A DNA stretch of 36,575 bases from Escherichia phage T7, in the sequence record MZ375294.1; one strand, 5' to 3'. This document shows, in pieces, positions 371-36,575 of this stretch. The first letter of the stretch is position 1, and each line of letters begins with the position of its first letter. The notes beneath the pieces are model-generated. The model did not search any database. It saw only the letters and a list, made by a program, of their open reading frames with translations, and was not told the DNA's origin. A program made the translations under genes and the position numbers.

Positions 371-393
371 TAATACAACTCACTATAGGGAGA
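371..393 (+). promoter_or_regulatory. T7 RNAP promoter phiOL (replication-associated, left end)
   Basis: taatacaactcactatagggaga; 22/23 match to the T7 promoter consensus, A at -11. Confidence 0.85.
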
Positions 394-1328: not shown

Positions 1329-2408
1329 ATGAACATTACCGACATCATGAACGCTATCGACGCAATCAAAGCACTGCCAATCTGTGAACTTGACAAGCGT
1401 CAAGGTATGCTTATCGACTTACTGGTCGAGATGGTCAACAGCGAGACGTGTGATGGCGAGCTAACCGAACTAAATCAGGCACTTGAGCATCAAGATTGGT
1501 GGACTACCTTGAAGTGTCTCACGGCTGACGCAGGGTTCAAGATGCTCGGTAATGGTCACTTCTCGGCTGCTTATAGTCACCCGCTGCTACCTAACAGAGT
1601 GATTAAGGTGGGCTTTAAGAAAGAGGATTCAGGCGCAGCCTATACCGCATTCTGCCGCATGTATCAGGGTCGTCCTGGTATCCCTAACGTCTACGATGTA
1701 CAGCGCCACGCTGGATGCTATACGGTGGTACTTGACGCACTTAAGGATTGCGAGCGTTTCAACAATGATGCCCATTATAAATACGCTGAGATTGCAAGCG
1801 ACATCATTGATTGCAATTCGGATGAGCATGATGAGTTAACTGGATGGGATGGTGAGTTTGTTGAAACTTGTAAACTAATCCGCAAGTTCTTTGAGGGCAT
1901 CGCCTCATTCGACATGCATAGCGGGAACATCATGTTCTCAAATGGAGACGTACCATACATCACCGACCCGGTATCATTCTCGCAGAAGAAAGACGGTGGC
2001 GCATTCAGCATCGACCCTGAGGAACTCATCAAGGAAGTCGAGGAAGTCGCACGACAGAAAGAAATTGACCGCGCTAAGGCCCGTAAAGAACGTCACGAGG
2101 GGCGCTTAGAGGCACGCAGATTCAAACGTCGCAACCGCAAGGCACGTAAAGCACACAAAGCTAAGCGCGAAAGAATGCTTGCTGCGTGGCGATGGGCTGA
2201 ACGTCAAGAACGGCGTAACCATGAGGTAGCTGTAGATGTACTAGGAAGAACCAATAACGCTATGCTCTGGGTCAACATGTTCTCTGGGGACTTTAAGGCG
2301 CTTGAGGAACGAATCGCGCTGCACTGGCGTAATGCTGACCGGATGGCTATCGCTAATGGTCTTACGCTCAACATTGATAAGCAACTTGACGCAATGTTAA
2401 TGGGCTGA
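1329..2408 (+). CDS. 0.7: Gene 0.7 serine/threonine protein kinase (host transcription shutoff)
   Basis: 359-aa ORF with basic Arg/Lys-rich C-terminal segment; position and length match T7 gp0.7. Confidence 0.93.
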
Positions 2409-2409
2409 T

Positions 2410-2470
2410 AGTCTTATCTTACAGGTCATCTGCGGGTGGCCTGAATAGGTACGATTTACTAACTGGAAGA
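2410..2470 (+). promoter_or_regulatory. RNase III processing site R1 upstream of gene 1
   Basis: Structured leader between 0.7 stop and gene 1 RBS (gaagaggcactaaATG). Confidence 0.5.
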
Positions 2471-2478
2471 GGCACTAA

Positions 2479-5130
2479 ATGAACACGATTAACATCGCTA
2501 AGAACGACTTCTCTGACATCGAACTGGCTGCTATCCCGTTCAACACTCTGGCTGACCATTACGGTGAGCGTTTAGCTCGCGAACAGTTGGCCCTTGAGCA
2601 TGAGTCTTACGAGATGGGTGAAGCACGCTTCCGCAAGATGTTTGAGCGTCAACTTAAAGCTGGTGAGGTTGCGGATAACGCTGCCGCCAAGCCTCTCATC
2701 ACTACCCTACTCCCTAAGATGATTGCACGCATCAACGACTGGTTTGAGGAAGTGAAAGCTAAGTGCGGCAAGCGCCCGACAGCCTTCCAGTTCCTGCAAG
2801 AAATCAAGCCGGAAGCCGTAGCGTACATCACCATTAAGACCACTCTGGCTTGCCTAACCAGTGCTGACAATACAACCGTTCAGGCTGCAGCAAGCGCAAT
2901 CGGTCGGGCCATTGAGGACGAGGCTCGCTTCGGTCGTATCCGTGACCTTGAAGCTAAGCACTTCAAGAAAAACGTTGAGGAACAACTCAACAAGCGCGTA
3001 GGGCACGTCTACAAGAAAGCATTTATGCGAGTTGTCGAGGCTGACATGCTCTCTAAGGGTCTACTCGGTGGCGAGGCGTGGTCTTCGTGGCATAAGGAAG
3101 ACTCTATTCATGTAGGAGTACGCTGCATCGAGATGCTCATTGAGTCAACCGGAATGGTTAGCTTACACCGCCAAAATGCTGGCGTAGTAGGTCAAGACTC
3201 TGAGACTATCGGACTCGCACCTGAATACGCTGAGGCTATCGCAACCCGTGCAGGTGCGCTGGCTGGCATCTCTCCGATGTTCCAACCTTGCGTAGTTCCT
3301 CCTAAGCCGTGGACTGGCATTACTGGTGGTGGCTATTGGGCTAACGGTCGTCGTCCTCTGGCGCTGGTGCGTACTCACAGTAAGAAAGCACTGATGCGCT
3401 ACGAAGACGTTTACATGCCTGAGGTGTACAAAGCGATTAACATTGCGCAAAACACCGCATGGAAAATCAACAAGAAAGTCCTAGCGGTCGCCAACGTAAT
3501 CACCAAGTGGAAGCATTGTCCGGTCGAGGACATCCCTGCGATTGAGCGTGAAGAACTCCCGATGAAACCGGAAGACATCGACATGAATCCTGAGGCTCTC
3601 ACCGCGTGGAAACGTGCTGCCGCTGCTGTGTACCGCAAGGACAAGGCTCGCAAGTCTCGCCGTATCAGCCTTGAGTTCATGCTTGAGCAAGCCAATAAGT
3701 TTGCTAACCATAAGGCCATCTGGTTCCCTTACAACATGGACTGGCGCGGTCGTGTTTACGCTGTGTCAATGTTCAACCCGCAAGGTAACGATATGACCAA
3801 AGGACTGCTTACGCTGGCGAAAGGTAAACCAATCGGTAAGGAAGGTTACTACTGGCTGAAAATCCACGGTGCAAACTGTGCGGGTGTCGATAAGGTTCCG
3901 TTCCCTGAGCGCATCAAGTTCATTGAGGAAAACCACGAGAACATCATGGCTTGCGCTAAGTCTCCACTGGAGAACACTTGGTGGGCTGAGCAAGATTCTC
4001 CGTTCTGCTTCCTTGCGTTCTGCTTTGAGTACGCTGGGGTACAGCACCACGGCCTGAGCTATAACTGCTCCCTTCCGCTGGCGTTTGACGGGTCTTGCTC
4101 TGGCATCCAGCACTTCTCCGCGATGCTCCGAGATGAGGTAGGTGGTCGCGCGGTTAACTTGCTTCCTAGTGAAACCGTTCAGGACATCTACGGGATTGTT
4201 GCTAAGAAAGTCAACGAGATTCTACAAGCAGACGCAATCAATGGGACCGATAACGAAGTAGTTACCGTGACCGATGAGAACACTGGTGAAATCTCTGAGA
4301 AAGTCAAGCTGGGCACTAAGGCACTGGCTGGTCAATGGCTGGCTTACGGTGTTACTCGCAGTGTGACTAAGCGTTCAGTCATGACGCTGGCTTACGGGTC
4401 CAAAGAGTTCGGCTTCCGTCAACAAGTGCTGGAAGATACCATTCAGCCAGCTATTGATTCCGGCAAGGGTCTGATGTTCACTCAGCCGAATCAGGCTGCT
4501 GGATACATGGCTAAGCTGATTTGGGAATCTGTGAGCGTGACGGTGGTAGCTGCGGTTGAAGCAATGAACTGGCTTAAGTCTGCTGCTAAGCTGCTGGCTG
4601 CTGAGGTCAAAGATAAGAAGACTGGAGAGATTCTTCGCAAGCGTTGCGCTGTGCATTGGGTAACTCCTGATGGTTTCCCTGTGTGGCAGGAATACAAGAA
4701 GCCTATTCAGACGCGCTTGAACCTGATGTTCCTCGGTCAGTTCCGCTTACAGCCTACCATTAACACCAACAAAGATAGCGAGATTGATGCACACAAACAG
4801 GAGTCTGGTATCGCTCCTAACTTTGTACACAGCCAAGACGGTAGCCACCTTCGTAAGACTGTAGTGTGGGCACACGAGAAGTACGGAATCGAATCTTTTG
4901 CACTGATTCACGACTCCTTCGGTACCATTCCGGCTGACGCTGCGAACCTGTTCAAAGCAGTGCGCGAAACTATGGTTGACACATATGAGTCTTGTGATGT
5001 ACTGGCTGATTTCTACGACCAGTTCGCTGACCAGTTGCACGAGTCTCAATTGGACAAAATGTCAGCACTTCCGGCTAAAGGTAACTTGAACCTCCGTGAC
5101 ATCTTAGAGTCGGACTTCGCGTTCGCGTAA
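2479..5130 (+). CDS. 1: T7 RNA polymerase (gene 1), single-subunit DNA-directed RNA polymerase
   Basis: 883-aa ORF starting MNTINIAKNDFSDIELAAIPF and ending ILESDFAFA. Confidence 0.98.
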   Translation: MNTINIAKNDFSDIELAAIPFNTLADHYGERLAREQLALEHESYEMGEARFRKMFERQLKAGEVADNAAAKPLITTLLPKMIARINDWFEEVKAKCGKRPTAFQFLQEIKPEAVAYITIKTTLACLTSADNTTVQAAASAIGRAIEDEARFGRIRDLEAKHFKKNVEEQLNKRVGHVYKKAFMRVVEADMLSKGLLGGEAWSSWHKEDSIHVGVRCIEMLIESTGMVSLHRQNAGVVGQDSETIGLAPEYAEAIATRAGALAGISPMFQPCVVPPKPWTGITGGGYWANGRRPLALVRTHSKKALMRYEDVYMPEVYKAINIAQNTAWKINKKVLAVANVITKWKHCPVEDIPAIEREELPMKPEDIDMNPEALTAWKRAAAAVYRKDKARKSRRISLEFMLEQANKFANHKAIWFPYNMDWRGRVYAVSMFNPQGNDMTKGLLTLAKGKPIGKEGYYWLKIHGANCAGVDKVPFPERIKFIEENHENIMACAKSPLENTWWAEQDSPFCFLAFCFEYAGVQHHGLSYNCSLPLAFDGSCSGIQHFSAMLRDEVGGRAVNLLPSETVQDIYGIVAKKVNEILQADAINGTDNEVVTVTDENTGEISEKVKLGTKALAGQWLAYGVTRSVTKRSVMTLAYGSKEFGFRQQVLEDTIQPAIDSGKGLMFTQPNQAAGYMAKLIWESVSVTVVAAVEAMNWLKSAAKLLAAEVKDKKTGEILRKRCAVHWVTPDGFPVWQEYKKPIQTRLNLMFLGQFRLQPTINTNKDSEIDAHKQESGIAPNFVHSQDGSHLRKTVVWAHEKYGIESFALIHDSFGTIPADAANLFKAVRETMVDTYESCDVLADFYDQFADQLHESQLDKMSALPAKGNLNLRDILESDFAFA

Positions 5131-5138
5131 CGCCAAAT

Positions 5139-5161
5139 TAATACGACTCACTATAGAGGGA
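5139..5161 (+). promoter_or_regulatory. T7 RNAP promoter phi1.1A
   Basis: taatacgactcactatagaggga. Confidence 0.9.
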
Positions 5162-5163
5162 CA

Positions 5164-5203
5164 AACTCAAGGTCATTCGCAAGAGTGGCCTTTATGATTG
5201 ACC
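5164..5203 (+). promoter_or_regulatory. RNase III processing hairpin R1.1
   Basis: actcaaggtcattcgcaagagtggcctttatgattgacc. Confidence 0.6.
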
Positions 5204-5213
5204 TTCTTCCGGT

Positions 5214-5236
5214 TAATACGACTCACTATAGGAGAA
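5214..5236 (+). promoter_or_regulatory. T7 RNAP promoter phi1.1B
   Basis: taatacgactcactataggagaa. Confidence 0.9.
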
Positions 5237-5314
5237 CCTTAAGGTTTAACTTTAAGACCCTTAAGTGTTAATTAGAGATTTAAATTAAAGAATTATTAAG
5301 AGAGGACTTTAAGT
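5237..5314 (+). other. AT-rich segment of the primary origin of DNA replication (downstream of phi1.1A/phi1.1B)
   Basis: ccttaaggtttaactttaagacccttaagtgttaattagagatttaaattaaagaattattaagag; strongly AT-rich immediately after the paired promoters. Confidence 0.7.
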
Positions 5315-5443
5315 ATGCGTAACTTCGAAAAGATGACCAAACGTTCTAACCGTAATGCTCGTGACTTCGAGGCAACCAAAGGTCGCAAGTTGAATAAGAC
5401 TAAGCGTGACCGCTCTCACAAGCGTAGCTGGGAGGGTCAGTAA
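5315..5443 (+). CDS. 1.1: Gene 1.1 small basic protein, function unknown
   Basis: 42-aa ORF MRNFEKMTKRSNRNARDFEATKGRKLNKTKRDRSHKRSWEGQ. Confidence 0.8.
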   Translation: MRNFEKMTKRSNRNARDFEATKGRKLNKTKRDRSHKRSWEGQ

Positions 5444-5444
5444 G

Positions 5445-5702
5445 ATGGGACGTTTATATAGTGGTAATCTGGCAGCATTCAAGGCAGCAACAAACAAGCT
5501 GTTCCAGTTAGACTTAGCGGTCATTTATGATGACTGGTATGATGCCTATACAAGAAAAGATTGCATACGGTTACGTATTGAGGACAGGAGTGGAAACCTG
5601 ATTGATACTAGCACCTTCTACCACCACGACGAGGACGTTCTGTTCAATATGTGTACTGATTGGTTGAACCATATGTATGACCAGTTGAAGGACTGGAAGT
5701 AA
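5445..5702 (+). CDS. 1.2: Gene 1.2 inhibitor of host dGTP triphosphohydrolase
   Basis: 85-aa ORF MGRLYSGNLAAFKAATNKLF...; the track ORF 5406-5702 is an upstream extension of the same frame. Confidence 0.85.
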   Translation: MGRLYSGNLAAFKAATNKLFQLDLAVIYDDWYDAYTRKDCIRLRIEDRSGNLIDTSTFYHHDEDVLFNMCTDWLNHMYDQLKDWK

Positions 5703-5722
5703 TACGACTCAGTATAGGGACA
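5700..5722 (+). promoter_or_regulatory. T7 RNAP promoter phi1.3
   Basis: taatacgactcagtatagggaca. Confidence 0.85.
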
Positions 5723-5724
5723 AT

Positions 5725-5760
5725 GCTTAAGGTCGCTCTCTAGGAGTGGCCTTAGTCATT
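5725..5760 (+). promoter_or_regulatory. RNase III processing hairpin R1.3
   Basis: gcttaaggtcgctctctaggagtggccttagtcatt. Confidence 0.55.
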
Positions 5761-5782
5761 TAACCAATAGGAGATAAACATT

Positions 5783-6862
5783 ATGATGAACATTAAGACT
5801 AACCCGTTTAAAGCCGTGTCTTTCGTAGAGTCTGCCATTAAGAAGGCTCTGGATAACGCTGGATATCTTATCGCTGAAATCAAGTACGATGGTGTACGCG
5901 GGAACATCTGCGTAGACAATACTGCTAACAGTTACTGGCTCTCTCGTGTATCTAAAACGATTCCGGCACTGGAGCACTTAAACGGGTTTGATGTTCGCTG
6001 GAAGCGTCTACTGAACGATGACCGTTGCTTCTACAAAGATGGCTTTATGCTTGATGGGGAACTCATGGTCAAGGGCGTAGACTTTAACACAGGGTCCGGC
6101 CTACTGCGTACCAAATGGACTGACACGAAGAACCAAGAGTTCCATGAAGAGTTATTCGTTGAACCAATCCGTAAGAAAGATAAAGTTCCCTTTAAGCTGC
6201 ACACTGGACACCTTCACATAAAACTGTACGCTATCCTCCCGCTGCACATCGTGGAGTCTGGAGAAGACTGTGATGTCATGACGTTGCTCATGCAGGAACA
6301 CGTTAAGAACATGCTGCCTCTGCTACAGGAATACTTCCCTGAAATCGAATGGCAAGCGGCTGAATCTTACGAGGTCTACGATATGGTAGAACTACAGCAA
6401 CTGTACGAGCAGAAGCGAGCAGAAGGCCATGAGGGTCTCATTGTGAAAGACCCGATGTGTATCTATAAGCGCGGTAAGAAATCTGGCTGGTGGAAAATGA
6501 AACCTGAGAACGAAGCTGACGGTATCATTCAGGGTCTGGTATGGGGTACAAAAGGTCTGGCTAATGAAGGTAAAGTGATTGGTTTTGAGGTGCTTCTTGA
6601 GAGTGGTCGTTTAGTTAACGCCACGAATATCTCTCGCGCCTTAATGGATGAGTTCACTGAGACAGTAAAAGAGGCCACCCTAAGTCAATGGGGATTCTTT
6701 AGCCCATACGGTATTGGCGACAACGATGCTTGTACTATTAACCCTTACGATGGCTGGGCGTGTCAAATTAGCTACATGGAGGAAACACCTGATGGCTCTT
6801 TGCGGCACCCATCGTTCGTAATGTTCCGTGGCACCGAGGACAACCCTCAAGAGAAAATGTAA
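5783..6862 (+). CDS. 1.3: ATP-dependent DNA ligase (gene 1.3)
   Basis: 359-aa ORF; adenylation motif EIKYDGVR with active-site Lys. Confidence 0.95.
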   Translation: MMNIKTNPFKAVSFVESAIKKALDNAGYLIAEIKYDGVRGNICVDNTANSYWLSRVSKTIPALEHLNGFDVRWKRLLNDDRCFYKDGFMLDGELMVKGVDFNTGSGLLRTKWTDTKNQEFHEELFVEPIRKKDKVPFKLHTGHLHIKLYAILPLHIVESGEDCDVMTLLMQEHVKNMLPLLQEYFPEIEWQAAESYEVYDMVELQQLYEQKRAEGHEGLIVKDPMCIYKRGKKSGWWKMKPENEADGIIQGLVWGTKGLANEGKVIGFEVLLESGRLVNATNISRALMDEFTETVKEATLSQWGFFSPYGIGDNDACTINPYDGWACQISYMEETPDGSLRHPSFVMFRGTEDNPQEKM

Positions 6863-6912: not shown

Positions 6913-6935
6913 TTTTACGACTCACTAAAGGAGGT
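6913..6935 (+). promoter_or_regulatory. T7 RNAP promoter phi1.5, upstream edge altered (TTT instead of TAA at -17 to -15)
   Basis: tttTACGACTCACTAAAGGAGGT; positions -14 to +6 are promoter-like, -17 to -15 replaced by the deletion junction. Confidence 0.65.
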
Positions 6936-7364: not shown

Positions 7365-7705
<341 letters not shown>

Positions 7706-7708
<3 letters not shown>

Positions 7709-7728
7709 TACGACTCACTATTAGGGAA
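7706..7728 (+). promoter_or_regulatory. T7 RNAP promoter phi2.5 (initiates with A)
   Basis: taatacgactcactattagggaa. Confidence 0.88.
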
Positions 7729-7773
7729 GACTCCCTCTGAGAAACCAAACGAAACCTAAAGGAGATTAACATT

Positions 7774-8352
7774 ATGGCTAAGAAGATTTTCACCTCTGCG
7801 CTGGGTACCGCTGAACCTTACGCTTACATCGCCAAGCCGGACTACGGCAACGAAGAGCGTGGCTTTGGGAACCCTCGTGGTGTCTATAAAGTTGACCTGA
7901 CTATTCCCAACAAAGACCCGCGCTGCCAGCGTATGGTCGATGAAATCGTGAAGTGTCACGAAGAGGCTTATGCTGCTGCCGTTGAGGAATACGAAGCTAA
8001 TCCACCTGCTGTAGCTCGTGGTAAGAAACCGCTGAAACCGTATGAGGGTGACATGCCGTTCTTCGATAACGGTGACGGTACGACTACCTTTAAGTTCAAA
8101 TGCTACGCGTCTTTCCAAGACAAGAAGACCAAAGAGACCAAGCACATCAATCTGGTTGTGGTTGACTCAAAAGGTAAGAAGATGGAAGACGTTCCGATTA
8201 TCGGTGGTGGCTCTAAGCTGAAAGTTAAATATTCTCTGGTTCCATACAAGTGGAACACTGCTGTAGGTGCGAGCGTTAAGCTGCAACTGGAATCCGTGAT
8301 GCTGGTCGAACTGGCTACCTTTGGTGGCGGTGAAGACGATTGGGCTGACTAA
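7774..8352 (+). CDS. 2.5: Single-stranded DNA-binding protein gp2.5, truncated by premature TAA (192 aa; acidic C-terminal tail codons remain in frame downstream to 8472)
   Basis: ORF MAKKIFTSALGTAEPYAYIAKPDYGNEERGF...GGEDDWAD then TAA at 8350-8352; same frame continues VEENGYVASGSAKASKPRDEESWDEDDEESEEADEDGDF to TAA at 8470-8472. Confidence 0.9.
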   Translation: MAKKIFTSALGTAEPYAYIAKPDYGNEERGFGNPRGVYKVDLTIPNKDPRCQRMVDEIVKCHEEAYAAAVEEYEANPPAVARGKKPLKPYEGDMPFFDNGDGTTTFKFKCYASFQDKKTKETKHINLVVVDSKGKKMEDVPIIGGGSKLKVKYSLVPYKWNTAVGASVKLQLESVMLVELATFGGGEDDWAD

Positions 8353-12070: not shown

Positions 12071-14185
12071 ATGATCGTTTCTGACATCGAAGATAACGCC
12101 CTCTTAGAGAGCGTCACTAAGTTCCACTGCGGGGTTATCTACGACTACTCCACCGCTGAGTACGTAAGCTACCGTCCGAGTGACTTCGGTGCGTATCTGG
12201 ATGCGCTGGAAGCCGAGGTTGCACGAGGCGGTCTTATTGTGTTCCACAACGGTCACAAGTATGACGTTCCTGCATTGACCAAACTGGCAAAGTTGCAATT
12301 GAACCGAGAGTTCCACCTTCCTCGTGAGAACTGTATTGACACCCTTGTGTTGTCACGTTTGATTCATTCCAACCTCAAGGACACCGATATGGGTCTTCTG
12401 CGTTCCGGCAAGTTGCCCGGAAAACGCTTTGGGTCTCACGCTTTGGAGGCGTGGGGTTATCGCTTAGGCGAGATGAAGGGTGAATACAAAGACGACTTTA
12501 AGCGTATGCTTGAAGAGCAGGGTGAAGAATACGTTGACGGAATGGAGTGGTGGAACTTCAACGAAGAGATGATGGACTATAACGTTCAGGACGTTGTGGT
12601 AACTAAAGCTCTCCTTGAGAAGCTACTCTCTGACAAACATTACTTCCCTCCTGAGATTGACTTTACGGACGTAGGATACACTACGTTCTGGTCAGAATCC
12701 CTTGAGGCCGTTGACATTGAACATCGTGCTGCATGGCTGCTCGCTAAACAAGAGCGCAACGGGTTCCCGTTTGACACAAAAGCAATCGAAGAGTTGTACG
12801 TAGAGTTAGCTGCTCGCCGCTCTGAGTTGCTCCGTAAATTGACCGAAACGTTCGGCTCGTGGTATCAGCCTAAAGGTGGCACTGAGATGTTCTGCCATCC
12901 GCGAACAGGTAAGCCACTACCTAAATACCCTCGCATTAAGACACCTAAAGTTGGTGGTATCTTTAAGAAGCCTAAGAACAAGGCACAGCGAGAAGGCCGT
13001 GAGCCTTGCGAACTTGATACCCGCGAGTACGTTGCTGGTGCTCCTTACACCCCAGTTGAACATGTTGTGTTTAACCCTTCGTCTCGTGACCACATTCAGA
13101 AGAAACTCCAAGAGGCTGGGTGGGTCCCGACCAAGTACACCGATAAGGGTGCTCCTGTGGTGGACGATGAGGTACTCGAAGGAGTACGTGTAGATGACCC
13201 TGAGAAGCAAGCCGCTATCGACCTCATTAAAGAGTACTTGATGATTCAGAAGCGAATCGGACAGTCTGCTGAGGGAGACACAGCATGGCTTCGTTATGTT
13301 GCTGAGGATGGTAAGATTCATGGTTCTGTTAACCCTAATGGAGCAGTTACGGGTCGTGCGACCCATGCGTTCCCAAACCTTGCGCAAATTCCGGGTGTAC
13401 GTTCTCCTTATGGAGAGCAGTGTCGCGCTGCTTTTGGCGCTGAGCACCATTTGGATGGGATAACTGGTAAGCCTTGGGTTCAGGCTGGCATCGACGCATC
13501 CGGTCTTGAGCTACGCTGCTTGGCTCACTTCATGGCTCGCTTTGATAACGGCGAGTACGCTCACGAGATTCTTAACGGCGACATCCACACTAAGAACCAG
13601 ATAGCTGCTGAACTACCTACCCGAGATAACGCTAAGACGTTCATCTATGGGTTCCTCTATGGTGCTGGTGATGAGAAGATTGGACAGATTGTTGGTGCTG
13701 GTAAAGAGCGCGGTAAGGAACTCAAGAAGAAATTCCTTGAGAACACCCCCGCGATTGCAGCACTCCGCGAGTCTATCCAACAGACACTTGTCGAGTCCTC
13801 TCAATGGGTAGCTGGTGAGCAACAAGTCAAGTGGAAACGCCGCTGGATTAAAGGTCTGGATGGTCGTAAGGTACACGTTCGTAGTCCTCACGCTGCCTTG
13901 AATACCCTACTGCAATCTGCTGGTGCTCTCATCTGCAAACTGTGGATTATCAAGACCGAAGAGATGCTCGTAGAGAAAGGCTTGAAGCATGGCTGGGATG
14001 GGGACTTTGCGTACATGGCATGGGTACATGATGAAATCCAAGTAGGCTGCCGTACCGAAGAGATTGCTCAGGTGGTCATTGAGACCGCACAAGAAGCGAT
14101 GCGCTGGGTTGGAGACCACTGGAACTTCCGGTGTCTTCTGGATACCGAAGGTAAGATGGGTCCTAATTGGGCGATTTGCCACTGA
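12071..14185 (+). CDS. 5: T7 DNA polymerase (gene 5), family A polymerase with 3'-5' exonuclease
   Basis: 704-aa [29 protein letters not shown]...; family A polymerase-type palm residues near the C-terminus. Confidence 0.97.
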
Positions 14186-14230
14186 TACAGGAGGCTACTC
14201 CAAAGGCATAAAACTATAGGAGAAATTATT

Positions 14231-14530
14231 ATGGCTATGACAAAGAAATTTAAAGTGTCCTTCGACGTTACCGCAAAGATGTCGTCTGACGTTCAGGCAA
14301 TCTTAGAGAAAGATATGCTGCATCTATGTAAGCAGGTCGGCTCAGGTGCGATTGTCCCCAATGGTAAACAGAAGGAAATGATTGTCCAGTTCCTGACACA
14401 CGGTATGGAAGGATTGATGACATTCGTAGTACGTACATCATTTCGTGAGGCCATTAAGGACATGCACGAAGAGTATGCAGATAAGGACTCTTTCAAACAA
14501 TCTCCTGCAACAGTACGGGAGGTGTTCTGA
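14231..14530 (+). CDS. 5.5: Gene 5.5 protein (H-NS-binding)
   Basis: 99-aa ORF MAMTKKFKVSFDVTAKMSSDVQAILEKDMLH... Confidence 0.85.
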   Translation: MAMTKKFKVSFDVTAKMSSDVQAILEKDMLHLCKQVGSGAIVPNGKQKEMIVQFLTHGMEGLMTFVVRTSFREAIKDMHEEYADKDSFKQSPATVREVF

Positions 14531-17250: not shown

Positions 17251-18861
17251 ATGGCTGAGAAACGAACAGGACTTGCGGAGGATGGCGCAAAGTCTGTCTA
17301 TGAGCGTTTAAAGAACGACCGTGCTCCCTATGAGACACGCGCTCAGAATTGCGCTCAATATACCATCCCATCATTGTTCCCTAAGGACTCCGATAACGCC
17401 TCTACAGATTATCAAACTCCGTGGCAAGCCGTGGGCGCTCGTGGTCTGAACAATCTAGCCTCTAAGCTCATGCTGGCTCTATTCCCTATGCAGACTTGGA
17501 TGCGACTTACTATATCTGAATATGAAGCAAAGCAGTTACTGAGCGACCCCGATGGACTCGCTAAGGTCGATGAGGGCCTCTCGATGGTAGAGCGTATCAT
17601 CATGAACTACATTGAGTCTAACAGTTACCGCGTGACTCTCTTTGAGGCTCTCAAACAGTTAGTCGTAGCTGGTAACGTCCTGCTGTACCTACCGGAACCG
17701 GAAGGGTCAAACTATAATCCCATGAAGCTGTACCGATTGTCTTCTTATGTGGTCCAACGAGACGCATTCGGCAACGTTCTGCAAATGGTGACTCGTGACC
17801 AGATAGCTTTTGGTGCTCTCCCTGAGGACATCCGTAAGGCTGTAGAAGGTCAAGGTGGTGAGAAGAAAGCTGATGAGACAATCGACGTGTACACTCACAT
17901 CTATCTGGATGAGGACTCAGGTGAATACCTCCGATACGAAGAGGTCGAGGGTATGGAAGTCCAAGGCTCCGATGGGACTTATCCTAAAGAGGCTTGCCCA
18001 TACATCCCGATTCGGATGGTCAGACTAGATGGTGAATCCTACGGTCGTTCGTACATTGAGGAATACTTAGGTGACTTACGGTCCCTTGAAAATCTCCAAG
18101 AGGCTATCGTCAAGATGTCCATGATTAGCTCTAAGGTTATCGGCTTAGTGAATCCTGCTGGTATCACCCAGCCACGCCGACTGACCAAAGCTCAGACTGG
18201 TGACTTCGTTACTGGTCGTCCAGAAGACATCTCGTTCCTCCAACTGGAGAAGCAAGCAGACTTTACTGTAGCTAAAGCCGTAAGTGACGCTATCGAGGCT
18301 CGCCTTTCGTTTGCCTTTATGTTGAACTCTGCGGTTCAGCGTACAGGTGAACGTGTGACCGCCGAAGAGATTCGGTATGTAGCTTCTGAACTTGAAGATA
18401 CTTTAGGTGGTGTCTACTCTATCCTTTCTCAAGAATTACAATTGCCTCTGGTACGAGTGCTCTTGAAGCAACTACAAGCCACGCAACAGATTCCTGAGTT
18501 ACCTAAGGAAGCCGTAGAGCCAACCATTAGTACAGGTCTGGAAGCAATTGGTCGAGGACAAGACCTTGATAAGCTGGAGCGGTGTGTCACTGCGTGGGCT
18601 GCACTGGCACCTATGCGGGACGACCCTGATATTAACCTTGCGATGATTAAGTTACGTATTGCCAACGCTATCGGTATTGACACTTCTGGTATTCTACTCA
18701 CCGAAGAACAGAAGCAACAGAAGATGGCCCAACAGTCTATGCAAATGGGTATGGATAATGGTGCTGCTGCGCTGGCTCAAGGTATGGCTGCACAAGCTAC
18801 AGCTTCACCTGAGGCTATGGCTGCTGCCGCTGATTCCGTAGGTTTACAGCCGGGAATTTAA
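17251..18861 (+). CDS. 8: Head-to-tail connector (portal) protein gp8
   Basis: 536-aa ORF MAEKRTGLAEDGAKSVYERLKNDRAPYETRAQNCAQYTIPSLFP...; in-frame ATG 15 nt upstream at 17236. Confidence 0.95.
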   Translation: MAEKRTGLAEDGAKSVYERLKNDRAPYETRAQNCAQYTIPSLFPKDSDNASTDYQTPWQAVGARGLNNLASKLMLALFPMQTWMRLTISEYEAKQLLSDPDGLAKVDEGLSMVERIIMNYIESNSYRVTLFEALKQLVVAGNVLLYLPEPEGSNYNPMKLYRLSSYVVQRDAFGNVLQMVTRDQIAFGALPEDIRKAVEGQGGEKKADETIDVYTHIYLDEDSGEYLRYEEVEGMEVQGSDGTYPKEACPYIPIRMVRLDGESYGRSYIEEYLGDLRSLENLQEAIVKMSMISSKVIGLVNPAGITQPRRLTKAQTGDFVTGRPEDISFLQLEKQADFTVAKAVSDAIEARLSFAFMLNSAVQRTGERVTAEEIRYVASELEDTLGGVYSILSQELQLPLVRVLLKQLQATQQIPELPKEAVEPTISTGLEAIGRGQDLDKLERCVTAWAALAPMRDDPDINLAMIKLRIANAIGIDTSGILLTEEQKQQKMAQQSMQMGMDNGAAALAQGMAAQATASPEAMAAAADSVGLQPGI

Positions 18862-18881
18862 TACAACTCACTATAGGGAGA
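18859..18881 (+). promoter_or_regulatory. T7 RNAP promoter phi9
   Basis: taatacaactcactatagggaga (A at -11). Confidence 0.85.
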
Positions 18882-19897: not shown

Positions 19898-19920
19898 TAA
19901 TACGACTCACTATATGGAGA
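19898..19920 (+). promoter_or_regulatory. T7 RNAP promoter phi10 with T instead of G at +1
   Basis: taatacgactcacTATATGGAGA; followed by the s10 leader and RBS aagaaggagatatacatATG. Confidence 0.85.
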
Positions 19921-36432: not shown

Positions 36433-36575
36433 TCTCACAGTGTACGGACCTAAAGTTCCCCCCATAGGGTGTACCTAAAGCCCAGCCAATCACCTAAAGT
36501 CAACCTTCGGTTGACCTTGAGGGTTCCCTAAGGGTTTGTCTTTGGGTGTTACCTTGAGTGTCTCTCTGTGTCCCT
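36433..36575 (+). repeat. Right direct terminal repeat
   Basis: Exact copy of bases 1-143. Confidence 0.95.

Follow-up and report, generated by a model that had tools for sequence, protein, structure and literature searches.

Five missense substitutions in gene 1 of a genome-reduced laboratory derivative of bacteriophage T7

Gene 1 and its five substitutions

The stretch of DNA analysed here (the window, 36,575 bp) is a whole T7 genome, about 3.4 kb under the reference length. Translation of positions 2479-5130 gave the reading frame of T7 RNA polymerase at the unchanged length of 883 amino acids claimed by the original prediction, which had also listed about five amino acid substitutions. 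Reference gene 1 (NC_001604, positions 3171-5822) was translated for the protein comparison, and bases were compared with V01146. In gene 1, this base-by-base comparison identified five differences and no others, each of them nonsynonymous; synonymous differences were absent. The residues, codon numbers and coordinates that had been listed were all correct, and protein and nucleotide alignment to reference gene 1 found no identity at the five codons.

2479..5130, + strand: gene 1, T7 RNA polymerase, 883 amino acids plus stop (translation, base comparison, Pfam and PDB match)
2764..2766, + strand: codon 96, R96C, C>T at 2764 relative to V01146
2887..2889, + strand: codon 137, V137A, promoter-binding domain, T>C at 2888 relative to V01146
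3028..3030, + strand: codon 184, Q184R, subdomain H, A>G at 3029 relative to V01146
3211..3213, + strand: codon 245, E245G, intercalating beta-hairpin, A>G at 3212 relative to V01146
5062..5064, + strand: codon 862, P862S, extended foot module, C>T at 5062 relative to V01146

As a single-subunit T7-like DNA-dependent RNA polymerase, the enzyme matched the Pfam families RNA_pol (PF00940, the catalytic domain, E 8e-109) and RPOL_N (PF14700, the N-terminal domain, E 1.8e-33), both far above the curated cut-offs, and matched PDB 1CEZ/1QLN over its full length. The catalytic and nucleotide-selection residues D537, K631, Y639, H811 and D812, invariant in a 91-sequence alignment that includes the window, are unchanged, and the C-terminal FAFA is retained. 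The five changes leave the catalytic core untouched.

We placed each substitution using residue ranges quoted in published papers (PMC8874028, PMC13614062, PMC5445346) and examined conservation among 89 relatives. The N-terminal promoter-binding and refolding domain carries four of the five changes, an enrichment (four of five in 37% of the protein) that is not significant (P about 0.07). Residue 96 lies in the AT-rich recognition loop, where R96L is among the known changes (PMC8874028); this position is R or K in 75% of the relatives and C in none. Codon 137 is two residues from the near-invariant Q135, and 27 of 89 relatives naturally have alanine there. Position 184, a glutamine in 78 of 89 relatives, falls in subdomain H (residues 151-190), a part of the enzyme that refolds as it passes into elongation (PMC13614062). 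The intercalating beta-hairpin spans residues 230-245, making E245 its last residue (PMC8874028); position 245 is variable, with Q the commonest residue and G in no relative. P862 lies in the extended foot module (residues 835-883) (PMC13614062) and is invariant (89 of 89); the lysozyme contacts of the polymerase are at residues 844, 850-853 and 855 (PMC5445346).

Genome-wide changes and origin of the allele

Genome-wide alignment to V01146 returned 54 mismatches. Three of these (window positions 1293, 7344 and 9869) were discarded as alignment-edge artefacts in microhomologies at deletion junctions, leaving 51 true substitutions, or about 1 per 700 bp, in keeping with the predicted scatter of one single-base difference per several hundred bp. 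The original prediction had also suggested computing the genome-wide ratio of nonsynonymous to synonymous changes: it is 31 to 5 among the 36 coding changes, a dN/dS of 1.8 that, taken from the window's genome alone, is statistically indistinguishable from neutrality (P = 0.11). Nor is gene 1 a hotspot (5 substitutions versus 2.9 expected, P = 0.16), and the chance of all five of its changes being missense is 0.11.

The genome also carries nine internal deletions and an 18-bp deletion in each terminal repeat, a shortening that had gone unremarked. Genes 1.4 (7608-7763) and 4.7 (13927-14334) are deleted to the base; because they were removed exactly as open reading frames, these deletions were designed. 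Further deletions affect genes 0.4-0.6, 1.7, 3.8, 4.3, 5.3, 7.7 and 19.5.

The best matches to the window were the GenBank entries named "Mutant Escherichia phage T7 clone" T7_290L, T7_300L and T7_300S, from the CRISPR/Cas9 iterative genome-reduction (CiPGr) study of Yuan et al. (2022, NAR, PMC9825161), in which T7 went through about 300 transfers on an E. coli MG1655 host equipped with Cas9, lambda-Red and a deletion-cassette library. T7 mutants from that study carry about 60 point mutations each, 90% of them missense, with a Ka/Ks of 2.9, and point mutations are reported there only in aggregate (PMC9825161). Gene 1 of T7_290L (MZ375289) and T7_300L (MZ375291) is 100% identical to that of the window over all 2,652 bases, and these clones belong to the same deletion family and have 32-33 of the window's substitutions in common. 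Outside gene 1, T7_300L differs from the window by about 35 substitutions and three further deletions. Among the phage records searched, R96C, E245G and P862S were confined to MZ375/OL9647 records. Q184R had 61 exact-match records that appear to be CiPGr only; all 26 listed in a spread sample were MZ375/OL9647 records.

The window is thus a T7 clone of the CiPGr lineage: it carries derived alleles, such as R96C, E245G and P862S, that are otherwise found only in CiPGr clones, and its deletions remove non-essential genes, including designed open reading frames exactly. No identical genome, and so no deposited clone of the series that equals it, was found among the records of the phage collection, where even the closest clones are tens of substitutions and several deletions away; the window is either an unlisted CiPGr sibling or a genome whose own record is absent from the collection searched. 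Its prediction as a mutagenised, evolved or synthetic derivative was borne out for the evolved and engineered part, which the match to CiPGr clones supports, and was not supported for chemical mutagenesis. A spectrum dominated by G:C>A:T transitions with many synonymous changes would be expected of the latter, while the window has 25 transitions to 26 transversions (the three artefacts removed) and only 5 synonymous changes in 36; isolate P, a T7 line discussed below, shows the contrasting G:C>A:T-rich pattern. Natural strain variation was considered and rejected. The five-change allele is therefore correctly described but largely ordinary, as it belongs to a laboratory lineage that is already published and deposited. 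A literature search retrieved no paper naming the five substitutions together with T7 RNA polymerase.

The sibling clones also record the order of the changes. The early clone T7_10S has reference gene 1, and therefore all five changes arose during the experiment, spontaneously and stepwise over the passages. Q184R, absent in T7_10S, is present by transfer 30 (T7_30L and later clones). V137A, carried by 34 records, is first seen at transfer 130, is polymorphic at transfers 130-190 and is in all clones from about transfer 200 (200L) on. R96C occurs in seven CiPGr records from T7_250S (about transfer 250) onward. E245G (T7_290L, 300L and 300S) and P862S (T7_290L, 290S and 300L) came last, at transfers 290-300, and each is confined to three records. 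All four combinations of E245 and P862 alleles occur among clones 280S, 290S, 300S and 290L, showing that the gene 1 changes recombined within the population.

Sequencing noise was rejected since sibling clones that were assembled independently carry the same alleles. This sharing refutes the broader suggestion that the differences stem from mistakes in sequencing, in assembly or in the 1983 reference sequence, to which we assign a negligible probability; gene 1 of T7_10S, a clone of the same laboratory, agrees with the reference throughout, and reference alleles are present in many other T7 records. Nothing specific favors such errors beyond one known discrepancy of a single base outside gene 1, where T7_10S has an additional A at reference position 1896.

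Off-target Cas9 cutting within gene 1 might account for some of the changes, which would then be escape mutations of no significance for transcription. In the CiPGr study 23.5% of T7 point mutations fell in spacer or PAM regions (PMC9825161), and tight clusters of substitutions elsewhere in the window (8681/8687/8688 and 36315/36318/36323) resemble protospacer escape. However, the five changes in gene 1 are isolated from one another, and the essential gene 1 is not mentioned as a target; we regard this origin as very improbable.

Promoter mutations and selection on transcription

The following T7 promoters in the window carry changes relative to the reference.

371..393, + strand: phiOL, +1 A>G at window position 388, toward the consensus GGGAGA
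5139..5161, + strand: phi1.1A, -17 C>T at window position 5139, toward the consensus
6913..6935, + strand: phi1.5, -17 to -15 replaced by the gene 1.4 deletion junction (TAA>TTT)
18859..18881, + strand: phi9, -11 G>A at window position 18865, away from the consensus
19898..19920, + strand: phi10 (major capsid gene), +1 G>T at window position 19915

The phiOL change is in most clones from T7_30L onward, and the phi10 change is in every fetched clone from T7_130L on. The phi1.1A change, which lies inside the stretch bound by the AT-rich loop, was not found in any fetched sibling locus or in any of 50,697 phage records; the phi9 change was likewise absent from the fetched sibling loci and from every record of the phage collection. 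The T7 promoters, 391 bp in all, hold four point mutations where 0.55-0.58 would be expected (P about 0.003). The promoters of the window keep the T7 specificity bases except at -11 in phi9.

Several further observations hint at selection alongside this promoter enrichment. Across the clones examined there are nine distinct gene 1 mutations (R96C, P100Q, V137A, Q184R, E245G, R357H, E477D, K577N and P862S), and all nine are missense with none synonymous (P about 0.05). The AT-rich loop was altered twice, by R96C in the window and by P100Q in T7_1t2, with the qualification that the P100Q clones came from mixed populations and their independence is uncertain. V137A recurs, as the identical T>C change, in an unrelated laboratory T7 line with many mutations, isolate P (AY264777/AY264778), which we take to be that of Bull et al. 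2003. It is the only T>C change in gene 1 of isolate P, which has 20 other differences there (18 G:C>A:T transitions, roughly half of which are synonymous, and 2 uncalled as N) and none of the window's other four substitutions.

Together, these observations suggest, but do not establish, that the polymerase changes were selected. As a whole, we lean slightly toward an explanation in which a CiPGr clone's gene 1 acquired spontaneous, stepwise changes that in part reflect selected retuning of transcription. Q184R and V137A, the early sweeps, and probably R96C may have been selected for retuned promoter binding and a retuned switch from initiation to elongation. From the placement of the residues, R96C would take away a positive charge by which the polymerase holds the AT-rich upstream promoter region, Q184R would add a positive charge in the subdomain that refolds into the RNA exit path, and E245G would leave the base of the DNA-melting hairpin with one negative charge fewer. 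These changes may act jointly with the point mutations in phiOL, phi1.1A, phi9 and phi10, rebalancing transcription in a genome whose layout of genes and promoters was altered by deletions, presumably with promoter specificity unaltered. P862S, which replaces an invariant proline close to the foot that binds lysozyme, could equally well be a late, slightly harmful passenger or an adaptation.

A serious competitor, to which we give somewhat less than even odds, is that all of the changes are neutral or slightly harmful passengers with no useful effect on transcription, fixed under relaxed purifying selection by hitch-hiking with deletions and Cas9-escape alleles or by drift in population crashes. 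Sweeps of such deletions and alleles could fix neutral polymerase changes, and the protocol re-expanded populations that had fallen below 1e5 PFU/ml (PMC9825161). The neutral-like dN/dS and the lack of enrichment in gene 1 fit this reading, as do the natural variability of positions 137 and 245 and the loss of an invariant proline in P862S. T7_300L, which has the same gene 1 allele, has a burst size of about 2 versus 143 in wild type (PMC9825161), and therefore the late changes coincide with falling fitness. [quoted passage not shown]

The partly selected retuning that we prefer has a more specific form, which we consider unlikely. The polymerase and its 17 cognate promoters would have co-evolved in the reduced genome: R96C would loosen the hold of the AT-rich loop on promoter positions -17 to -13, with compensation at individual promoters, for example through C>T at -17 of phi1.1A and tolerance of the phi1.5 junction, while down-mutations in phi9 and phi10 would lower capsid-gene transcription to suit crippled replication. 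If true, the lineage would document how natural selection retunes a single-subunit polymerase together with 17 promoters.

The main value of these results is provenance, as users of this "T7" sequence should be aware that they have a laboratory derivative whose genome is reduced, whose polymerase and promoters are altered and whose ssDNA-binding protein is truncated. The ordered polymerase and promoter mutations additionally provide a modest lead on how T7 transcription is rebalanced after gene loss, and the substitutions at R96, Q184 and P862 are candidate variants of an enzyme widely used in RNA manufacture.

Comparison with known T7 RNA polymerases

Relative to the reference polymerase (V01146/NC_001604; PDB 1CEZ, 1QLN and 1ARO), the window's enzyme is identical at 878 of 883 residues, is of equal length and has the same domains, differing by the five substitutions alone. 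T7 RNA polymerases evolved by PACE to recognize the T3 promoter carry R96L, K98R, E207K, E222K, N748D and P759S/L (PMC8874028). The presence of R96L in that set is the one point in favor of deliberate engineering of the window's polymerase, for example for altered promoter specificity, higher thermostability or lower by-product formation. We consider this highly improbable: the changes came singly over 300 transfers, and the CiPGr paper describes no gene 1 editing, with "RNA polymerase" appearing only in its reference list (PMC9825161). In addition, the specificity-loop and auxiliary-helix changes of the PACE enzymes are absent from the window's enzyme, in which N748, E222, E207, K98 and P759 are all unchanged, so that it shows no T3-type switch in specificity. 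What the PACE enzymes and the window's polymerase have in common is the loss of arginine 96 of the AT-rich loop, which is replaced by leucine in the former and by cysteine in the latter.

The gene 1 allele and its lineage

The gene 1 open reading frame, encoding T7 RNA polymerase, translates without interruption from window 2479-5130 into 883 aa, the unchanged length claimed in the original prediction. Comparison with gene 1 of reference T7 (NC_001604/V01146, 3171-5822) identified exactly five base differences, all amino acid-changing, and no synonymous differences over the whole gene. These are the five substitutions predicted, with matching residues, codon numbers and coordinates.

Differences from reference gene 1 by base comparison (window coordinates)
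2764, + strand: C>T, R96C
2888, + strand: T>C, V137A
3029, + strand: A>G, Q184R
3212, + strand: A>G, E245G
5062, + strand: C>T, P862S

The best database matches to the window were GenBank records MZ375233-MZ375293 and OL9647xx, named 'Mutant Escherichia phage T7 clone' T7_10S to T7_300S (transfer number, then plaque size), from a CRISPR/Cas9 iterative genome-reduction experiment, CiPGr (Yuan et al. 2022, Nucleic Acids Res 50:13183, PMC9825161). There, T7 underwent 300 passages on E. coli MG1655 with Cas9/lambda-Red and a deletion-cassette library (PMC9825161). Gene 1 of the window is base-identical to that of T7_290L (MZ375289) and T7_300L (MZ375291), supporting the proposal of an evolved or synthetic derivative rather than reference T7. 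These two clones have 32-33 of the window's substitutions in common with it, but T7_300L is ~35 substitutions and three deletions apart genome-wide. No record compared was identical over the whole genome, and a search of 50,697 phage records gave no match for some window alleles, including -17T in promoter phi1.1A and -11A in promoter phi9; the window is therefore a separate sibling clone of the CiPGr lineage. It is near certain that its gene 1 is a laboratory-evolved CiPGr allele. Taken together, three observations exclude errors in sequencing, natural variation or engineering by design as the source: the alleles are common to several clones, T7_10S has the reference allele, and known specificity-switch changes are missing.

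T7_10S encodes the reference polymerase and has seven substitutions genome-wide, four of them common to the window. Q184R was in clones by transfer 30; its exact matches number 61 records, and all 26 of those listed are from CiPGr. V137A appeared earliest at transfer 130, was polymorphic to 190 and is in all clones from 200L on, while R96C is carried by 250S (which also has the missense change K577N) and 280S-300S. Among database records, E245G is limited to 290L, 300L and 300S, and P862S to 290L, 290S and 300L. All four allele combinations at residues 245 and 862 are present among 280S, 290S, 300S and 290L; therefore recombination took place inside gene 1, as expected because passaging used high multiplicity. 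Another allele, gene 17 N546K (window 33272), is common to T7_30L and the window but missing in 290L and 300L, which indicates a long-lived polymorphism or recombination between sub-lineages.

Genome architecture

A BLAST chain showed that the window is a complete T7 genome, colinear with V01146 (36,575 bp vs 39,937 bp), with a terminal repeat at each end. Internally it has nine deletions, in or across genes 0.4-0.6, 1.4, 1.7, 3.8, 4.3, 4.7, 5.3, 7.7 and 19.5.

Terminal repeats and deletion junctions (window coordinates)
1-143 and 36433-36575: terminal repeats, 143 bp vs 160 bp in the reference
1297/1298, 6915/6916, 7348/7349, 9869/9870, 11676/11677, 12052/12053, 14200/14201, 17227/17228 and 36376/36377: deletion junctions

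Both repeats have an identical 18-bp deletion (reference 99-116), an extra C (window 26 and 36458) and, at window 38 and 36470, an identical G>T change. Two deletions, those of gene 1.4 (7608-7763) and gene 4.7 (13927-14334), coincide to the base with the annotated ORFs, which indicates that they are the product of design. Others end in 3-9 bp microhomologies, suggesting repair following Cas9 cutting rather than templated deletion. The smallest T7 genome in PMC9825161 is that of T7_300L, given there as 36,937 bp; the GenBank record of T7_300L is 37,262 bp, and the window and several deposited clones are shorter than 36,937 bp.

The alignment to V01146 contained 54 mismatches. Those at window 1293, 7344 and 9869 were rejected as alignment artefacts within junction microhomologies, leaving 51 true substitutions (~one per 700 bp), in line with the scattered differences and rough rate first noticed. 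Two groups of three fall within 8-9 bp, in gene 2.8 (window 8681, 8687 and 8688) and upstream of the 19.5 deletion (36315, 36318 and 36323), a pattern expected of Cas9 protospacer escape. Over the whole window, the + (non-template) strand has A>G 10-11 times vs T>C once (P about 0.01), and A>C 8-9 times vs T>G three. This asymmetry could reflect selection or a transcription- or replication-strand bias, which is conceivable because all T7 genes are transcribed rightward.

Possible selection on the polymerase and its promoters

The window polymerase has Pfam RNA_pol and RPOL_N matches, a full-length match to solved T7 RNA polymerase structures and unchanged catalytic residues. Published residue ranges were used to place the substitutions: PMC8874028 puts the AT-rich recognition loop at 93-101 and the intercalating hairpin at 230-245, PMC13614062 puts subdomain H at 151-190 and the extended foot at 835-883, and PMC5445346 gives lysozyme contacts at 844, 850-853 and 855. 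Conservation was assessed in 89 relatives of 66-98% identity. R96C lies in the AT-rich loop, which contacts promoter positions -17 to -13; 75% of relatives have R or K at residue 96, and none has C. R96 forms a salt bridge at non-template -16 in simulations, and R96L is a recurrent change in polymerases selected for use of the T3 promoter (PMC8874028). V137A is two residues from the near-invariant Q135 (V in 50/89, A in 27/89), and Q184R (Q in 78/89) is inside subdomain H, which refolds when the polymerase switches to elongation. E245G is at the final hairpin residue, a variable position that is never G, and P862S falls within the extended foot, seven residues past the lysozyme contacts, where all 89 relatives have P.

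All 17 T7 promoters were compared with the reference, and four had point changes; in addition, positions -17 to -15 of phi1.5 were replaced via the gene 1.4 deletion.

Promoter point changes
phiOL: A>G at +1, nearer to consensus, from transfer 30 on
phi10: G>T at +1, from transfer 130 on
phi1.1A: C>T at -17, nearer to consensus, in the window only
phi9: G>A at -11, further from consensus, in the window only

Because four substitutions in 391 bp exceed the ~0.55 expected (P about 0.003), it looks like polymerase and promoters together, as a transcription system, were a target of change in the CiPGr lineage.

The window genome alone does not prove selection. The original prediction had pointed to the ratio of nonsynonymous to synonymous changes; the 36 substitutions in retained coding sequence are 31 nonsynonymous (one nonsense) and five synonymous, and a spectrum-matched neutral model attains the resulting dN/dS of 1.8 with P = 0.11. 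Gene 1 has five substitutions vs 2.9 expected (P = 0.16). The main rival explanation, that all five gene 1 changes are hitch-hikers or drift, is compatible with these values, and off-target Cas9 escape would be a less likely source of some of them.

The lineage-wide picture is suggestive of selection on gene 1. All nine distinct gene 1 mutations across the clones examined are missense (P about 0.05), and for 38 of 40 clones listed, mismatch counts equal amino acid differences, which excludes synonymous gene 1 changes there. The recurrence of V137A in the unrelated isolate P, described below, is a further hint. T7_1t2 (OL964749, gene 1 at 1586-4237), published as the fittest reduced T7 (PMC9825161), has Q184R plus the missense changes P100Q, R357H and E477D; P100Q, like R96C, alters the AT-rich loop, which was thus mutated twice in the lineage. 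Counting against selection, T7_300L has a burst size of ~2 with the same gene 1 allele, the P100Q clone derived from mixed populations (PMC9825161), and P862S, possibly a harmful passenger, changes an invariant residue. On balance, the best-supported reading, at roughly even chances, is selection of the early changes and probably of R96C, which together with the mutated promoters would have retuned initiation and promoter escape.

Replication proteins and comparison with known T7 lines

Substitutions in replication genes (window coordinates)
7774-8352: gp2.5, ssDNA-binding protein, E193* (stop at 8350-8352)
12093 and 13281: gene 5, DNA polymerase, A8D and K404T

E193* removes 40 C-terminal residues of gp2.5, including the acidic tail, which is reportedly essential. 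The allele is also in 280L, 280S, 290L, 300L and 300S, and T7_270S instead has a frameshift that converts the tail to basic sequence, so the tail was lost twice. K404T is in all fetched clones from 250S on, and thus predates and accompanies all tail-less gp2.5 alleles; A8D is in most late clones. Both are candidate suppressors permitting tail loss.

The gene 1 allele and the CiPGr lineage are already public, and many missense point mutations with Ka/Ks above 1 were reported before (Yuan et al. 2022), at ~60 point mutations in each T7 mutant (90% missense) and Ka/Ks 2.9 (PMC9825161). Further work might be worthwhile only on the polymerase-promoter pattern, which PMC9825161 does not discuss, and on the missing acidic tail of gp2.5. 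Outside this lineage, the same V137A T>C change is found in isolate P (AY264777/AY264778), an unrelated laboratory line with a heavy load of G:C>A:T mutations, where it is the sole T>C among 21 differences in gene 1 (AY264777, 2022-4673), the other 20 being 18 G:C>A:T transitions and two uncalled bases (N).
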